Assembly (NCBI GenBank): GCA_036004665.1
Contig: DASYRG010000008.1
Location: 82,754 to 146,753 of the forward strand
Direction: 5' to 3'
Length of the DNA: 64,000 nt
DNA from: a bacterium
GTDB taxonomy: Bacteria; Sysuimicrobiota; Sysuimicrobiia; Sysuimicrobiales; Humicultoraceae
Shown: positions 568-59,440 of the stretch, piece by piece
Numbering within the stretch: the stretch's first letter is position 1
Layout: each line of letters begins with the position of its first letter
The notes under the pieces: model-generated
The model's input: only the letters and a program-made list of their open reading frames with translations
What the model was told of the DNA's origin: nothing
Database searches by the model: none
Position numbers and translations under genes: made by a program

Positions 568-1875
568 ATGAGGCCGCATCACCCTGTTGTGACGATTGAG
601 GACCTCTCTCAGCATGTCGGGGAGACGGTGGAGCTGCGTGGGTGGCTGGTCACGCGCCGCAGCAGTGGGGGAATCCACTTTCTCCTCCTGCGCGATGGCA
701 CGGGTGTCGTGCAGGCGGTCGTCTCGGGGAAAGGGGCCGACGTGGACGCCTTCGGGCGGGCCGATCACCTCCCCCAGGAGAGCAGCCTCATCGTCACAGG
801 GACGGTGCGGGCTGACCGGCGTGCGCCCGGCGGGGTGGAGCTGACCGTGCGGGCGCTCACGCCGCTCCAGGAAGCTGCCCCCTACCCGATCACGCCCAAG
901 GAGCACGGGGTGGAGTTCCTGATGGACCACCGCCACCTCTGGCTTCGGTCGCCGCGCCAGTGGGCGATCATACGCGTGCGCGCGGAAGTCATCCGCGCCG
1001 CCACGGCCTTCCTCGAGGGCGAGGGCTTCCTGCGCGTCGACACCCCGATCCTCACACCGGCGTCCGTGGAGGGGACCACCACGCTCTTCGACGTGGACTA
1101 CTTCGACCTGGGGAAGGCCTACCTGGCCCAATCCGGCCAACTCTACAACGAGGCGACGATCGCGGCGTTCGGCCGCGTCTACTGTTTCGGCCCCACCTTT
1201 CGCGCCGAAAAGAGCAAGACCCGCCGCCACCTCATCGAGTTCTGGATGCTCGAGCCGGAGGTCGCCTACCTCGGCCTGGAGGGCTACATGGACCTGGCGG
1301 AGTCGTTCGTCGCCGCCATTGTCCGTGACGTGGTGGCTCACCGCGCCCGCGAGTTGGACACCCTCGGCCGGGATCCAGAACCCTTACGGCGGGTGCTCCC
1401 GCCCTTTCCCCGGATCACCTACGACGAGGCCAGGGAGATCCTAACCTCGGCCGGCAAACCGATCCCCTGGGGGGAGGACTTCGGCGGCGACGAAGAGACG
1501 GTCATCTCCGCGCGTTTCGATCGACCCGTGTTCGTCCATCGCTATCCCGCGCGCGCCAAGGCATTCTACATGGAGCCTGACCCGGATCGGCCGGAGGTGG
1601 TGCTCTCGGCGGACCTGCTAGCCCCGGAAGGGTACGGAGAGATCATCGGCGGCGGCGAGCGCATCTGGGATTTGGCGCTGCTGGAACGGCGGCTGGCCGA
1701 GTGGGGGCTGCCGCGGGAGACCTACGAGTGGTACCTCGACCTGCGCCGCTACGGCGCTGTGCCGCACTCCGGCTTCGGTCTCGGCATCGAGCGCACCGTG
1801 GCCTGGATCTGCGGCCTCGAACACATTCGTGAGGCCATTCCTTTTCCCCGGCTGATCAACCGGATTACTCCCTAG
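568..1875 (+). CDS. asnS: asparaginyl-tRNA synthetase (class II aaRS)
   Basis: 435 aa; motifs [24 protein letters not shown] and GGGERIWD with C-terminal [12 protein letters not shown] are typical of AsnRS. Confidence 0.85.
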
Positions 1876-1996
1876 AGCTGCAGACCACACCTACGCAAAC
1901 CGAACGATGGGATGCGGTTTGCTCCGGTGTGGCCCGCAGCCACACGGAGTACGTCCGCTGATGAGTCGTGGAAGCGGATGACACCCGGCCTGTGTG

Positions 1997-2066
1997 AGAG
2001 CAGAAACGCACGCCCTCAGAAACTGTATCCCGTAGTTCGGTTTAAGAGGGCGTGCGTTTCTGCTCT
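1997..2066. repeat. nested-hairpin intergenic element, copy A: perfect 21-bp outer stem (AGAGCAGAAACGCACGCCCTC) around a 28-nt loop carrying the conserved core in reverse orientation; lies between the convergent asnS and 2070..2663 genes and probably acts as a bidirectional terminator
   Basis: Inverted repeat 1997-2017 / 2046-2066; loop AGAAACTGTATCCCGTAGTTCGGTTTAA is the reverse complement of the core seen in copies B, C and D. Confidence 0.7.
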
Positions 2067-2069
2067 TGC

Positions 2070-2663
2070 TTAGGTCGGATTCTCGTCCGCCTCCGGAGAC
2101 CCCACCGCCGCTGAACCGGGTTCTGAGGGTTCCAGGTCGGCGAGCAGAGTCGACCAGGCAGCGGCGAGCTCTTCCTCCGACGCATACGGCTGAGCCGTCA
2201 CCGCCCCTTCGCTCTCCCGCGTGACGATGACGCCCGCCGCCGCCTCAAGCGCCCGCAGCTCTCCGGCATCGACCGGGGGCTCCCCGTTCGTCTGCGCGTC
2301 TTCCAGGGCTTCGCGCGTCCGCCGCGCAATCTCTGCGCCGTCGCGCAGCAGGGCGGCCCAGAGGTGCCCCTCTTCGACCTCTGGCCCCGCGACCTCGTCG
2401 GCACCCTCCTGCGCCAGCGCCAAGAGGATGGGGGCGAGGGATCGGTCGAATTGACGCGGCGTCGTTTCCGGTGCCGCCTCCATCGTCGTGGGAGTGCGCC
2501 GGCGCCGGGTCCGCGCGCGCTTCGCCGGCGTCGCGCCCTCCTTGCCGAGCGCGGTGCGGGTCCGGGCCGGCAGATGGGCGATCGTCCGTTTCCGTTTCGC
2601 CGCCCTGATCGCTTTCTTGACGTTCGTGCGGGCTGCCGCCCGCTGTTTTCTGGTGGCCATCAC
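2070..2663 (-). CDS. hypothetical protein with a strongly basic N-terminus (ATRKQRAAARTNVKKAIRAAKRKR...) and an acidic C-terminal half; possibly a nucleic-acid-binding protein
   Basis: 197-aa ORF; good RBS (GAGGGAGGGTG) upstream of the ATG on the minus strand; ends 3 nt from hairpin element A. Confidence 0.6.
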   Translation of the reverse strand: MMATRKQRAAARTNVKKAIRAAKRKRTIAHLPARTRTALGKEGATPAKRARTRRRRTPTTMEAAPETTPRQFDRSLAPILLALAQEGADEVAGPEVEEGHLWAALLRDGAEIARRTREALEDAQTNGEPPVDAGELRALEAAAGVIVTRESEGAVTAQPYASEEELAAAWSTLLADLEPSEPGSAAVGSPEADENPT

Positions 2664-11817: not shown

Positions 11818-14226
11818 ATGATCGTTTCGACACAACGTCAGGTAGAGATTCAAGTCGGGGGGCGGACGCTCTCCTTCGAGACCGGGCTGCTGGCCCGCCA
11901 GGCCGACGGCGCCGTCGTGGTGCGGTACGGCGACAGCCTGGTCCTGGTGACGGCCACGGGCGCCGCCGAACCCCGCGCCGGCATCGACTTCTTCCCGCTG
12001 ACCTGTGACTACGAAGAGAAGATGTACGCCGCAGGGAAGATCCCCGGCGGGTTCTTCAAGCGGGAGGGCCGGCCTGGAGAAGGCGCCATCCTCACCGCGC
12101 GCCTGATGGACCGCCCGATCCGTCCGCTCTTCCCCAAAGGGATGCGCCACGACGTTCAGGTGATCGCCACCGTGCTCTCCACGGACCAGGAGAACGATCC
12201 CGCCATCCTGGCCGTCAACGGCGCTTCTGCGGCGCTGATGCTCTCCGGACTGCCGTTTGAGGGGCCGGTCGGCGCGGTGCGCGTGGGCCTCATCGACGGC
12301 ACGCTGGTGATCAACCCGACCATGCGGCAAATCGAGGAGCAGAGCTGGCTGGATCTAGTCGTGGCGGGGACGGCCGGAGCGATCATCATGATCGAGGCGG
12401 GGGCGAAAGAGGTCCCTGAGGAGCAGATGGTGGCGGCCCTCGACCTCGCCCAGACCGAGATCCGGCGGATCGTGGAGATTCAGAACAGGTTGGCTGAACT
12501 GGCGGCCAAACCCCGGCGGGAGATCCCCCTGGCCCTTCCCGATCCCGCGCTTGCCGCCGTCGTACGCGAGGCGGCCCTCCCGCAGATCGTCGAGGTCTAC
12601 AGGCACTCTGAGAAGATGGCGCGCGAGGAAGCGTTGCGAGACATCCAGCGCACGGTCGCGCAGACCCTGATGGAGCGTGATTCGGACCGCTACGGGGGCG
12701 CTGGCGCTGCCGTGGCGGACGTCGTCGATGCGCTGGCCAAGGAGGAGATGCGGCGCCGGGTCCTCGGGGAGGGGCGGCGCGCCGATGGGCGGGGCACGAC
12801 GGAGATCCGGCCCCTTACCATCCAGGTCGGGCTGCTCCCGCGGGCGCACGGCTCGGGACTGTTCCAGCGCGGGCAGACCCAGGTGCTCACCGTGACCACC
12901 CTCGGCACCGGCGAGGACGAGCAGAAGCTGGACAACCTGGGTCTGGCCGAACGCAAGCGGTACATGCATCACTACTCCTTTCCGCCTTTCAGCGTCGGAG
13001 AGGTCCGGCCGCTGCGGGGGGCGGGGCGCCGCGAGATCGGACACGGGGCGCTGGCGGAGCGGGCGCTGGCGTGGGCGATTCCCTCCGCGGAGGCCTTCCC
13101 GTACACCATCCGTCTGGTCTCGGAAGTGCTGGAGTCGAACGGCTCCACCTCGATGGCCGCCGTCTGCGGCTCGACGCTCGCCCTCATGGACGCGGGCGTG
13201 CCCATCCGAGCGGCGGTCGCCGGCATCTCCGTGGGGCTGATCACCGACGATGCGGGCCGGGCCGCCCTCCTCACCGACATCCTGGGGATGGAGGACGAGA
13301 TGGGCGACATGGACTTCAAGGTCGCCGGCACGCGGGACGGGATCACGGCGATTCAACTGGACCTGAAGATCAAGGGGCTGAACCGGGAGCTGCTGCTGGG
13401 CGCCCTAGCCCAGGCGCGGGATGCCCGCCTGACCATCCTGGACCGGATGACCGAGGTCCTGCCCGGGCCGCGGACAACGCTCTCCCCCTACGCGCCGCGC
13501 ATCCTGACGATGGAGATCAACCCCGAGCGCATCCGCGAGGTGATCGGTCCCGGCGGCAAGGTGATCAACAAGATCACGCAGGAGACCGGCGCCAAGATCG
13601 ACATTGAGCAGGACGGCCGGATCGCCATCGCCTCGGTGGACGAGGCGGCGGCGCGGCGGGCGATGGCGATGATCGAAGAGATCGTCCGCGAGGTGAAGGT
13701 GGGCGAGCTGTACCTGGGACGCGTCACGCGGCTGATGAACTTCGGCGCCTTCGTCGAGGTGCTTCCCGGCAAGGAAGGACTCGTGCACATCTCCGATCTC
13801 TCCGATGACCGGGTGGAGAAGGTCGAAGACGTGGTCAAGGTGGGAGACGAACTGCTGGTCAAGGTCAAGGAGATCGACAATCTCGGCCGCGTCAACCTGA
13901 CGCGGCGGGGGATCGGGGCCGACGAAGAGAGCGCGATCCCCCAGGGCATGACCGCCCCGCCGCTGCGTCCCCAGCGCGACGATCGGGGGCGAGGAGGAGG
14001 ACGGGGCGGACCGGGCCGACCGGGGCGGGGACGCAGCGGAGGAGGCCGCGGTCCCGACGGTGGCCGGGGCGGGCGTCCCCAGGGCCCGCGCAGCCAAGGG
14101 CGAGGTGAACACCGCGGCGCCGGCGCCCGCGGGGGGTCGGAAAGGCCGCGCGGGGGCGGTTCAGAGAGTGGGGGATCTGGAGGGGCTTCGGGAGAGGGCG
14201 GAGGCGGAACCGGCCCTGCACGCTGA
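11818..14226 (+). CDS. pnp: polynucleotide phosphorylase with a ~90-aa Arg/Gly-rich (RGG-type) C-terminal tail
   Basis: 802 aa; RNase PH, KH and S1 domains (GELYLGRVTRLMNFGAFVEV); low-complexity tail after the S1 domain. Confidence 0.95.
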   Translation: MIVSTQRQVEIQVGGRTLSFETGLLARQADGAVVVRYGDSLVLVTATGAAEPRAGIDFFPLTCDYEEKMYAAGKIPGGFFKREGRPGEGAILTARLMDRPIRPLFPKGMRHDVQVIATVLSTDQENDPAILAVNGASAALMLSGLPFEGPVGAVRVGLIDGTLVINPTMRQIEEQSWLDLVVAGTAGAIIMIEAGAKEVPEEQMVAALDLAQTEIRRIVEIQNRLAELAAKPRREIPLALPDPALAAVVREAALPQIVEVYRHSEKMAREEALRDIQRTVAQTLMERDSDRYGGAGAAVADVVDALAKEEMRRRVLGEGRRADGRGTTEIRPLTIQVGLLPRAHGSGLFQRGQTQVLTVTTLGTGEDEQKLDNLGLAERKRYMHHYSFPPFSVGEVRPLRGAGRREIGHGALAERALAWAIPSAEAFPYTIRLVSEVLESNGSTSMAAVCGSTLALMDAGVPIRAAVAGISVGLITDDAGRAALLTDILGMEDEMGDMDFKVAGTRDGITAIQLDLKIKGLNRELLLGALAQARDARLTILDRMTEVLPGPRTTLSPYAPRILTMEINPERIREVIGPGGKVINKITQETGAKIDIEQDGRIAIASVDEAAARRAMAMIEEIVREVKVGELYLGRVTRLMNFGAFVEVLPGKEGLVHISDLSDDRVEKVEDVVKVGDELLVKVKEIDNLGRVNLTRRGIGADEESAIPQGMTAPPLRPQRDDRGRGGGRGGPGRPGRGRSGGGRGPDGGRGGRPQGPRSQGRGEHRGAGARGGSERPRGGGSESGGSGGASGEGGGGTGPAR

Positions 14227-15518
14227 TGACGCAGCGGACTGAACACACCATCCTGCCGAACGGCATCCAGGTGATCACCGAGACGATGCCCGCGGTGCGC
14301 ACGGCCGCGGTGGGCATTTGGATCGGCACCGGCTCGCGCTACGAGGAGGCGGCCCTGGGGGGGATCTCCCACTTCCTCGAACACCTCTTCTTTAAAGGCA
14401 CGGAGAGTCGCACCGCCCTCGACATCGCCAGCGCGGCTGACGCCATCGGCGCGCAGCTCAACGCCTTCACCGACCGGGAAGGCACCGTCCTCTACGGCAA
14501 GGCGCTGTCGAACCACCTTCCCGCCGTCCTCGACCTGATGGCGGACATGCTGCTGCGCGCCTCCCTGGACCCCGAGGCCCTGGAGCGGGAGCGGCAGGTG
14601 ATCCTCGAAGAGATCAAGATGTATGAGGACTCACCGGACGAGCTCGTGCAGGATCTCTTTGCCCAGACCGTCTGGAACGGCCATCCCCTCGGCCGGCCGG
14701 TCATCGGCACGGTGGACACGGTGCGCGCCCTCACGCGCGAGGACTTCCTGCGCTACCGGGCGCAGCACTACCGGCCGGGCAACGTCATCGTGGCCGTGGC
14801 CGGCGACGTCCGCCACGCCGAGGTCGTCGGGCTGGTGGCCGAACGTCTCGGAGCGTGGGAGGGGGCGGTCCCCGCACGGCCAACCGAGCGTCCTTTGGTC
14901 CGTCCCGATATCTCGCTGCGCCCTAAAGAGACTGAGCAGGTGCACCTCACCGTGGGCACGCGGGGACTGCCGCAGGGAGACGAAGGGCGATACGTCATGG
15001 CTATCCTCGACGGAATCCTGGGCGGGGGGATGTCCAGCCGGCTCTTTCAGGAGATCCGGGAGCGGCGCGGCCTGGTGTACACCATTACCACCTACCACTC
15101 CGCCTACCGGGATGCCGGGCTCTTCGTCGTCTATGGGGCGATGAGCCCGCCGGCGGCGCCGCAGGTGACCTCGCTCATCATGGAAGAGTTCGAGAAGATC
15201 AAGGACCGGATTCCCCCCGAGGAACTGAGCCGGGCCAAGGAGTCCCTCAAGGGCGTGATCATGCTGTCGCTGGAGTCCACTGACAGCCGGATGTTCAACC
15301 TGGCGCGCTCGCAGATCTACTTCGGCCGGCAGTTCACCCTTGATGAGATCCTGGCGCGCATCGACGCGGTCACCGCCGAGCAGGTGCAGGCGATGGCGGC
15401 GGAGACCCTCATCCCGGAGCGGCTGGCGCTGGCGGCCATCGGACCGTTCCGCCCTGACGGATCCCTCTCCCGCACACTCACGCAGGCCTTCCGCGCGGAA
15501 AGCGCACTCACCGCGTAA
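14226..15518 (+). CDS. M16-family zinc peptidase (MlpA/YmxG-like)
   Basis: 430 aa; HFLEHLFFKGT inverted zincin motif; ATG overlaps the pnp stop (ctgATGa). Confidence 0.85.
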   Translation: MTQRTEHTILPNGIQVITETMPAVRTAAVGIWIGTGSRYEEAALGGISHFLEHLFFKGTESRTALDIASAADAIGAQLNAFTDREGTVLYGKALSNHLPAVLDLMADMLLRASLDPEALERERQVILEEIKMYEDSPDELVQDLFAQTVWNGHPLGRPVIGTVDTVRALTREDFLRYRAQHYRPGNVIVAVAGDVRHAEVVGLVAERLGAWEGAVPARPTERPLVRPDISLRPKETEQVHLTVGTRGLPQGDEGRYVMAILDGILGGGMSSRLFQEIRERRGLVYTITTYHSAYRDAGLFVVYGAMSPPAAPQVTSLIMEEFEKIKDRIPPEELSRAKESLKGVIMLSLESTDSRMFNLARSQIYFGRQFTLDEILARIDAVTAEQVQAMAAETLIPERLALAAIGPFRPDGSLSRTLTQAFRAESALTA

Positions 15519-15530
15519 GGGTCTCTAAGA

Positions 15531-15601
15531 GAGGATGAGAGCCGCACCCTCGGAAACCGAACTACAGGATCACGGTTTCCTTGGGTGCGGGTCTCATCCT
15601 C
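15531..15601. repeat. nested-hairpin element copy B: 19-bp outer stem with one mismatch, inner 8-bp stem GGAAACCG/CGGTTTCC, 13-nt apical loop AACTACAGGATCA
   Basis: Read directly; begins 13 nt after the M16 peptidase stop. Confidence 0.7.
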
Positions 15602-15655
15602 GCGTACAAATCCTCACCCGGTGGGCCCGTTACGAGCGGGGATCGCGTGCGTGTG

Positions 15656-15724
15656 AGGCTGAGGAACCCATCCGAGGAAACCGTGATCCTGTAGTTCGGT
15701 TTCGGAGGATGGGTTCCTCAGCCT
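15656..15724. repeat. nested-hairpin element copy C: 18-bp perfect outer stem of unrelated sequence; the core is the reverse complement of copy B's, matching 28 of 29 positions
   Basis: Read directly; ends 17 nt before the dapB GTG. Confidence 0.7.
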
Positions 15725-15740
15725 GAGAGGTACGTTCGCC

Positions 15741-16547
15741 GTGACGGACGCGATCCGGGTGGTTGTGAGTGGTGCGGCGGGGAGAATGGGGCGCGCGGCC
15801 GTGCGCGCCATCGCCGGCAGCGCCGATCTGGCGCTCACTGGTGCGGTGGGACGCAGCCGGGCGGTCGGCGACGATGCCGGCCTGACCGCGGGGCTCTCCG
15901 CTCTCGACGTCCGGATCGACGACGACCTTGCATCCCTGCTGGATCGCACGCGCCCCGACGTGCTGGTGGAGTTCGCCCCAGGCGCCGCGGCGGCGGCGCA
16001 TGCGCGGACGGCCATTCCGCGGGGCGTGCGTCCGGTGATCGGCGCGACCGGCCTCGCCCCCCAGGACGTTCAGGATCTCACAGGGCTGTGCGAAGCCCGC
16101 CGGGTCGGCGCCGTCATCGCCCCCAACTTCGCTCTGGGGGCGGTCCTGATGATGCAGTTCGCGCGCGCCGCCGCGCGGCACTTTCCCCACGTTGAAGTGA
16201 TCGAACTCCACCATGACCGTAAGCGCGACGCCCCCTCCGGCACCGCTGCCAAGACCGCGCAGATGATTGCCGACGCCCGGGGCGAGGCGCCAGTGCCGAA
16301 GGTCCAGGAGGAAGAGACCGCGGCGGGGGCGCGGGGCGGGACGGTGGGCGGCGTGCGGGTGCACAGCGTCCGCCTGCCCGGGCTGGTCGCCCATCAGGAG
16401 GTCATCTTCGGCGGTGCTGGCCAGGCCCTGACCATCCGCCATGACTCCTTCAACGAAGAGTCCTTCATGCCAGGGTTGCTGCTGGCGATCCGCCGCGTGA
16501 TGTCCTTGAGCAGCCTGGTCTACGGCCTGGAGAACCTGCTCGAGTAG
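15741..16547 (+). CDS. dapB: 4-hydroxy-tetrahydrodipicolinate reductase
   Basis: 268 aa; IRVVVSGAAGRMGRA NAD(P)-binding N-terminus; GTG start. Confidence 0.85.
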   Translation: MTDAIRVVVSGAAGRMGRAAVRAIAGSADLALTGAVGRSRAVGDDAGLTAGLSALDVRIDDDLASLLDRTRPDVLVEFAPGAAAAAHARTAIPRGVRPVIGATGLAPQDVQDLTGLCEARRVGAVIAPNFALGAVLMMQFARAAARHFPHVEVIELHHDRKRDAPSGTAAKTAQMIADARGEAPVPKVQEEETAAGARGGTVGGVRVHSVRLPGLVAHQEVIFGGAGQALTIRHDSFNEESFMPGLLLAIRRVMSLSSLVYGLENLLE

Positions 16548-23389: not shown

Positions 23390-23395
23390 CAGATG

Positions 23396-23467
23396 GGTGG
23401 TGAGCGGATGGGGTCGGGGCCGCCGAACGACGGGATCACGGCGTCCCTCGCCCATCCGCTCACCACC
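23396..23467. repeat. nested-hairpin element copy D: 17-bp outer stem GGTGGTGAGCGGATGGG/CCCATCCGCTCACCACC, a diverged inner stem, apical loop AACGACGGGATCA
   Basis: Core CCGAACGACGGGATCACGG matches copy B at 17 of 19 positions; the outer and inner stems differ from B but still pair. Confidence 0.65.
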
Positions 23468-23574
23468 ACCCGCAGGCTTGACCACCAAAGGGAGAAGGCG
23501 TCAAGCTGCCGAAGTGGACTGACATCGTACGTGAAATCGGCAGAAGTTCGTCGGACCCTTCACCGGAGCAACGT

Positions 23575-59345: not shown

Positions 59346-59440
59346 GGAGGGCAGTATCCGCTGGTGCGGGTCCCGGTCTTCAACACCGGTGGCGGGGCCT
59401 CGGGTTCCGCGCTGGGTTCGATTCCCAGGGCCCTCCGCCA
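59346..59440 (+). tRNA. selC: tRNA-Sec (anticodon UCA), selC
   Basis: GGAGGGC acceptor pairs with GCCCTCC-G-CCA; 6-bp D-stem ATCCGC/GCGGGT with 4-nt loop; anticodon loop CUUCAAC; 6-bp long variable arm; T-arm CTGGG-TTCGATT-CCCAG; CCA is encoded. Confidence 0.8.

Follow-up and report, generated by a model that had tools for sequence, protein, structure and literature searches.

A dimeric unit of a lineage-specific palindromic repeat family between an M16 peptidase gene and dapB in Armatimonadota

The window, a stretch of DNA of 64,000 nt, carries two long hairpins, designated B and C, between a gene for an M16-family peptidase and dapB. The stop codon of the peptidase gene lies at 15518, the start codon of dapB is a GTG at 15741, and the region can be laid out as follows.

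14226-15518, plus strand: upstream gene, M16-family peptidase (Pfam PF00675, PF05193)
15519-15530, plus strand: left outer flank, GGGTCTCTAAGA (from anchored alignments of ~30 copies)
15531-15601, plus strand: hairpin B, core in plus orientation (covariance model 85.3 bits, E = 2e-17)
15552-15580, plus strand: 29-nt conserved apical core of B, GGAAACCG AACTACAGGATCA CGGTTTCC (match 29/29)
15602-15654, no strand: spacer of 53 nt between hairpins B and C
15655-15724, minus strand: hairpin C, core in minus orientation (covariance model 88 bits, E = 5e-18)
15676-15704, minus strand: 29-nt core of C, 28/29 identical to the core of B
15725-15740, plus strand: right outer flank, GAGAGGTACGTTCGCC (from the sequence; motif kept in 4/4 orthologues)
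15741-16547, plus strand: downstream gene, dapB, 4-hydroxy-tetrahydrodipicolinate reductase (Pfam PF01113, PF05173)

Hairpin B is composed of an outer stem of 19 bp with one G.G mismatch, a 2x2 pyrimidine internal loop (TC/TT), an inner stem of 8 bp (GGAAACCG/CGGTTTCC) and an apical loop of 13 nt (AACTACAGGATCA), and reads GAGGATGAGAGCCGCACCC / TC / GGAAACCG / AACTACAGGATCA / CGGTTTCC / TT / GGGTGCGGGTCTCATCCTC. Hairpin C shows the same architecture in reverse complement, with a perfect outer stem of 18 bp. A preliminary description of this DNA had reported two copies that share 28 of 29 core positions in opposite orientations, and both are found where it placed them; the distances that it gave between the copies, from the peptidase stop and to the dapB start (54, 13 and 17 nt) are each within 1 nt of the measured 53, 12 and 16 nt. 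It had also considered the outer stems of the two copies to be unrelated. This part needs correction, as the two hairpins, aligned over 70 nt in core orientation, are 80% alike, and both outer stems fit one loose family consensus, (A)GGCTGAGGnCCnCAyCC.

The sequences around and between the hairpins have features of their own. Directly 3' of the M16 stop, the left outer flank carries the terminal motif CTCTAAG (family consensus CCTCTAAGG). At the other end, GAGAGG is the only Shine-Dalgarno-like motif 5' of the dapB GTG and sits in the terminal motif of the unit, CCTCAGCCTGAGAGG. The 53-nt spacer is weakly palindromic, is poorly conserved among non-orthologous copies, and evolves at a near-neutral rate between orthologues. 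Structure prediction, which had been proposed as a check, gave two long hairpins for the 222-nt intergenic region with RNA parameters (-129.6 kcal/mol, z = -9.3). The arms of B and C are 80% complementary to each other over 70 nt, yet the minimum-energy fold consists of two separate hairpins with RNA parameters and again with DNA parameters (-69.9 kcal/mol, z = -9.4).

B and C belong to one element family, as the preliminary description had supposed. An alignment of 30 copies was used to derive an RNAalifold consensus of 24 pairs, 20 of which show double-sided changes, and a covariance model was built from it. In the 64-kb window, this model finds five hairpins. Two of them are B and C (matches at 15526-15606 on the plus strand and 15650-15730 on the minus strand), and the other three are the following; relaxed searches likewise pointed to diverged copies near ~2000 and ~23430.

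1869-1948, plus strand, and 1992-2071, minus strand: second inverted pair (56.9 and 65.8 bits; fold z = -10.6)
23391-23472, plus strand: solo diverged copy (covariance model), directly 3' of the RNase J stop (23389)

On one side of the second pair is a class II aminoacyl-tRNA synthetase gene (stop at 1875), and on the other side is an ORF of 197 aa in convergent orientation (stop at 2070), for which no Pfam match was found. Both gene stops abut the unit, and the plus-strand hairpin begins at the stop codon of the synthetase gene. The spacer of this pair makes an 8-bp hairpin of its own. The solo copy has a covarying inner stem (GGGGCCGCCG/CGGCGTCCC), and its loop reads AACGACGGGATCA.

Outside the window, the covariance model identified ~50-55 further hairpins, which lie in MAGs of related Armatimonadota and in a small number of JGI metagenome contigs. 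The distribution of the family is narrow. A scan of 185,579 species genomes (one per species) for the exact core returned 83 loci, with true hairpins in only two MAGs, 'bacterium M3-S_metabat2.bin.423' (JBOGSD01) and 'Armatimonadetes bacterium NC_groundwater_1086' (JACQGZ01), and in a metagenome scan, true hairpins were confined to a few samples. Some 65 of the 83 genome matches and four metagenome matches were discarded as chance matches in coding DNA of unrelated bacteria, none of them with a hairpin, and many of these false matches recur in one conserved coding stretch of Actinobacteria (ACCGAACGACAGGATCACGGTGCC). L095, L098, L101 and L108 are among the loci with the core pattern in coding DNA and no hairpin, all of which would be false positives for a census based only on the core. 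A literature search on palindromic repeats of Armatimonadetes returned nothing relevant. By this search, the palindromic repeat family is previously undescribed in Armatimonadota. Its general kind is familiar, and it reveals no new mechanism.

The arrangement of B and C is the rule in the family. All 22 inverted pairs are in the order plus then minus (22/22), none is in the opposite order and a single pair is direct, so that 22 of 23 pairs are inverted. The spacers are mostly ~42-57 nt and whole units are mostly 190-210 nt in length. These numbers bear out the BIME-like alternating orientation suggested by the preliminary description; another of its suggestions, that the pair may be a footprint of propagation, is not supported, and inverted pairs of this type seem to be the normal dimeric form of the family. 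Each monomer consists of a hairpin of 70-80 nt and a tail of ~25 nt. Its outer end is conserved (consensus CCTCTAAGG) and its inner tail only weakly, and the spacer can thus be viewed as two tails face to face. Because the monomers are inverted and joined tail to tail, the loop AACKACRGGATCA is met first on either strand when read 5' to 3'. Within the hairpin, conservation is much higher in the apical core than in the outer stem, where only the pairing is kept.

Several copies depart from the standard arrangement. Two pairs lie within 570 nt at L078:3229-3798, with hairpins that overlap or nearly abut; L061:7429-7607 is a pair with a spacer of only ~14 nt; and L073:902-1069 is the sole direct, same-orientation pair. 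The loci L078 and L073 are orthologous, which makes the site an apparent hotspot of rearrangement. The loop varies as well. At the M16-dapB locus, the same two-base change, GGATC to AGCTC (GATC to AGCT), is seen in L086:9784-9864, L064:3861-3941 and L089:2208-2288, and the presence of the AGCTC loop in three copies of three genomes could represent a recurrent alternative loop allele.

To place the units relative to genes, genes were called from how G+C varies across codon positions. A unit opens with its first hairpin 0-8 nt 3' of the upstream stop codon, and where the flanking genes are convergent, both stops are at most ~18 nt from the unit ends. Units between convergent genes are found at window 1869-2071, L011, L019, L038, L065, L096 and L107. 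Units between co-directional genes are found at M16-dapB, L030, L093 and L112, in addition to a copy between a gene for an ABC-transporter binding protein and a permease gene. Solo copies are oriented both ways relative to the adjacent gene (~4 sense, 3 antisense). The placement of the units at stop codons matches the published behavior of REP singletons and dimers: a REP between convergent genes has both ORF ends less than 20 bp away, one in a unidirectional setting is found near the upstream ORF, and inverted REP dimers have spacers of 20-100 bp and include heterodimers with different stems (PMC3733652).

Comparison of orthologous junctions, another check that had been proposed, gave a clear result in favor of an insertion. 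DapB homologues of the window form a graded series within Armatimonadota. The pair is present in L084 and L085 (two Logan assemblies of the window's own strain, identical in sequence), in L086 (identical to L100; dapB 90% identical), in L093 and in L064 (bin.423; 87%), and L089 (83%) carries the first hairpin and a remnant of the end of the second. The junction is empty in L090 (83%), where TAG is followed directly by ATG with a 0-nt gap, in L091 (78%; 4-nt gap), in L087 (77%; 3-nt gap) and in L088 (73%; 3-nt gap). The site is therefore empty in four relatives and filled in five genomes, L089 being filled only partly. As the distant relatives are empty and the closer ones filled, the B-C pair is an insertion, and the gaps of 0-4 nt indicate that the ancestral state was a coupled stop/start junction; no conserved sequence of equal length lacking the inverted cores occupies the orthologous sites, an outcome that would have spoken against the preliminary description. 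A unit of ~200 nt entered the junction in an ancestor of a small sub-clade of Armatimonadota and has been inherited vertically since. The possibility that the outer stems of B and C were pre-existing terminators, or inverted duplications derived from the target, was rejected, as both stems fit the family consensus and the empty sites contain no such sequence.

Other sites also differ between genomes. The window has the solo copy 3' of RNase J, and its closest relative, L086, lacks it, a clean difference of ~73 nt that may reflect either an insertion or a precise loss. The 3' arm of this copy contains CTCACC, which weakly resembles CTCTCAC of the empty site, a similarity too short to interpret. 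In the groundwater MAG, a unit of 124 nt (hairpin and 45-nt tail) is found at both L028:1604-1727 and L036:813-936 with 94% identity, and the orthologous loci in L030 and L103 carry hairpins with different stems. In L036, what is left of an older hairpin, its 5' arm, lies directly next to the unit. These results suggest that the 124-nt duplicate arose when an element was recently copied, or transferred by gene conversion, into sites already occupied by one.

The stems of B and C have been kept paired by compensatory substitutions. Among four full orthologues, standard pairs occupy 93.4% of the stem cells, and 10 of 53 stem pairs have changed on both sides and are still paired, including GC-to-CG swaps. 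In a control in which the 3' partner was slid by 1-3 columns, there was at most one double-changed pair and pairing was 33-48%. A second orthologous locus (L011, L019, L112 and L099) yielded 14 double-changed pairs. When the window is compared with L086, the proportion of differing sites is 0.30-0.34 for the four-fold degenerate sites of M16 and dapB, ~0.26 for the spacer and only 0.03-0.06 for the two hairpins, a divergence of the hairpins 5-10 times slower than that of the four-fold degenerate sites. Pairing is thus actively maintained, which could be due either to selection or to self-templated correction of quasi-palindromes, a mechanism known in E. coli; the low absolute rate of change favors selection over self-templated correction. 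The idea that the outer stems are programmable, guide-like segments was discarded, since the stems stay the same between orthologous copies and drift only in a compensatory manner.

Compared to known systems, the B-C family most closely invites comparison with REP dimers, REPINs and BIMEs, which are also short non-coding palindromes dispersed in intergenic DNA (Di Nocera et al. 2013, PMC3733652; Bertels & Rainey 2011, PMC3116915). Both types of elements occur mostly as inverted dimers with spacers of 20-100 nt that may be structured, lie 3' of ORFs in unidirectional or convergent settings less than 20 bp from stops, form heterodimers with different stems and persist vertically over long periods. 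They also share a GTMG-type tetranucleotide, which is here on the strand opposite the core. The family has many dispersed intergenic copies near stops (five hairpins in 64 kb and more than 50 in related contigs), as REPs do, and recurring inverted doublets with a short spacer, as REPINs and BIMEs do. Several differences are also found. First, REPs have a stem of 5-13 bp in a unit of 20-40 nt, whereas the B-C monomer is 70-80 nt with ~27 bp (26-27 paired positions, in an outer stem of 18-19 bp and an inner stem of 8 bp), a hairpin about three times the length of a REP. Second, the GTMG tag of REPs (GTAG/CGTC) is unpaired at the end of the stem-loop; no such terminal tag is present here, and GT[A/C]G is instead found inside the 13-nt apical loop (TGATCCYGTMGTT). 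Third, the conserved part of the B-C family is the apical 29 nt (inner stem and 13-nt loop), while the long basal stem is only loosely conserved. Fourth, no RAYT gene could be connected with the family from the neighbors of its copies, and the family is known only from a narrow sub-clade of Armatimonadota. Because the first two of these are defining features of REPs, the family is not REP in the strict sense, but a new family of the same general kind.

Similar considerations apply to palindromic MITEs (Correia/NEMIS, ERIC and RUP) and to TIRYT-associated repeats with self-complementary TIRs (PMC3733652). Like them, the B-C element is a non-coding unit of ~200 bp with inverted arms at its ends, is present or absent at orthologous sites, is flanked by TA-containing triplets (TAA/GG...CC/TTA, slashes marking the ends of the unit) and can provide signals to neighboring genes, in this case a Shine-Dalgarno-like motif. 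In contrast to MITEs, each arm is itself a long hairpin, the copies are under structural purifying selection instead of decaying, the loci read revealed no insertion sequence with the same ends that could be the parent, and there is no clear target-site duplication. Unit ends read T-N-A/GG...CC/T-N-A, a 4-nt direct repeat is seen in only ~3 of 10 pairs with boundaries that are debatable, and empty and filled sites reveal no clean duplication. Intrinsic terminators, too, are stable G+C-rich hairpins just 3' of stop codons. Compared to these, the hairpins of the B-C family have stems about three times longer, no U-tract, a conserved 13-nt loop and a core common to all loci, and they are also found inside operon-like gene pairs.

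Collectively, these observations make it probable that B-C is one dimeric unit of ~200 bp of a lineage-specific, non-coding palindromic mobile repeat family, similar to REPs/REPINs/BIMEs and MITEs. A transposase supplied in trans, perhaps a RAYT-like enzyme that recognizes the hairpin with its conserved apical core, may have spread such units, and recent copying or gene conversion between copies may still be going on. After insertion, the unit would be transcribed together with the upstream gene. By analogy with known elements, the transcribed hairpin might serve as a stable 3'-end stabilizer, attenuator or insulator of the upstream mRNA, and the hairpins may partly uncouple M16 from dapB. The outer end of the unit would provide the Shine-Dalgarno-like GAGAGG to dapB. 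Several observations stand against this reading. First, a scan of the proteins next to 10 atypically placed copies and of the window genes beside hairpins (17 neighboring proteins in stretches of 8-20 kb) detected no transposase, all of them being housekeeping proteins or without a Pfam match; nor was a pair of copies flanking a gene seen in ~350 kb of family loci. Second, strong purifying constraint at fixed loci is not predicted for a purely selfish, decaying MITE. Third, target-site duplications cannot be demonstrated, and the monomer departs from the formal definition of a REP. Fourth, the lack of a U-tract and the symmetry of the stem mismatches between strands give the RNA role no positive support. 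As for a small protein, an ATG ORF of 63 aa spans the whole pair at 15535-15726, but it was rejected as an artefact, because spacer lengths vary and each copy has long stop-free stretches in several frames, which is expected at 70% G+C.

It is unlikely, though worth stating, that the family is instead a distinct variant of hairpin-recognized mobile DNA, or an RNA or DNA module domesticated by the host, that is recognized through an apical core. The determinant may then be apical, made up of the 8-bp inner stem, the GA/TC tandem mismatch and the 13-nt loop with its GTMG tag, whereas REPs use a basal tag. If this is true, drift of the long basal stem would be tolerated provided that pairing is kept, an uncharacterized partner protein would exist (e.g., an unusual Y1/HUH transposase or an RNA-binding factor), and single copies, which change 5-10 times slower than synonymous sites, would be under real selection at the level of the host.

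A cis-acting structured RNA, in which the hairpins would be 3' UTR sites for a lineage-specific RNA-binding protein or nuclease that recognizes the conserved 13-nt loop and inner stem in the transcript, and the copies would have spread by duplication because the host uses them, is unlikely in our estimate. The high conservation of the apical core compared to the outer stem, the slow divergence of the hairpins relative to four-fold degenerate sites and the start of the first hairpin almost directly 3' of the stop codon would all be expected of such an RNA. Several observations do not agree with it. Solo copies are found in both sense and antisense orientations. In unidirectional contexts, either member of the pair can keep the canonical loop, which is kept by the proximal copy in L064 and by the distal copy in L086. 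Even the loop is not constant, as orthologues differ from one another at 2-3 of its 13 positions. Stem mismatches on the core strand comprise 34 G.T and 31 A.C, and as the two types are equally common, they provide no strand-specific RNA signature. Any RNA function of the hairpins is thus proposed by analogy. A raw asymmetry of 88 versus 11 G.U between the strands was found to be an artefact of three extra pairs inside the loop on one strand. At the B-C locus, Rfam gave no match at the gathering threshold, and a permissive search returned only spurious miRNA-precursor models (14-28 bits against thresholds of 49-108). The sole Rfam match of the window at the gathering threshold is a tRNA-Sec gene at 59346-59436 (67.7 bits), which implies that the Armatimonadota host uses selenoproteins. 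The recognition site of CsrA is A(N)GGA. A CsrA-type site in the loop was considered and rejected, as ACNGGAU is only loosely similar to it and half of the hairpins show the complementary loop.

Transcription termination offers a further explanation. The preliminary description had suggested a strong bidirectional terminator or insulator, and each hairpin would in that case stop the polymerase that arrives from its own side. Each hairpin is highly stable as RNA (~-50 kcal/mol), the fixed polarity of the pair presents the same hairpin form first from either direction, and many units lie between convergent genes with both stops abutting. However, a scan of 15300-15950 found no terminator-like site and no run of T after either hairpin (the 3' sequences are CGCGTACAAATCC and GAGAGGTACG), and termination leaves the conserved 29-nt core unexplained. 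Furthermore, several units lie inside operon-like pairs, such as M16-dapB, which is coupled in relatives, and the ABC-transporter binding-protein and permease genes. Full termination there would silence the downstream gene. No sigma-70-like promoter was found in 15300-15950, and dapB must still be expressed across or from the pair. Strong termination in both directions finds no direct support here, and we regard the terminator explanation as quite unlikely.

An equally improbable explanation places the function in the DNA, with selection acting on the double-stranded palindrome as a cruciform or as a binding site for chromosome organization or topology. Binding of BIMEs by gyrase and IHF has been proposed. 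Mismatch types are symmetric between the strands, one-sided G-U intermediates are almost absent from the stems, double changes including GC-to-CG swaps are many, and folding with DNA parameters predicts the structure just as well, all of which would suit a DNA element. The 2x2 mismatch, moreover, is conserved as TC/TC on the core strand and GA/GA on the opposite strand, and together with the asymmetric loop it lends the palindrome a polarity. On the other hand, no binding protein or binding motif was identified, template-switch correction of quasi-palindromes could give the same symmetry without any function at the DNA level, and the tight tie to stop codons is more naturally attributed to transcription, translation or insertion preference. 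Finally, a chance inverted repeat, or a gene-specific pair of terminators without relatives, can be set aside as practically negligible, given that none of 100 dinucleotide shuffles (0/100) gave a core match at the level of B and C, that the covariance matches have E ~1e-17 and that more than 50 related copies exist in other genomes.

The results have implications for annotation and for the evolution of such elements. The family accounts for several intergenic hairpins of very high stability and for the spurious 63-aa ORF, and dapB has its ribosome-binding site inside the conserved terminal motif of the element. Comparison of empty and filled orthologous sites allows the insertion to be dated. 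The compensatory evidence for single copies is unusually clean, and it bears on the debate over whether REPs and REPINs are selfish or serve their hosts.
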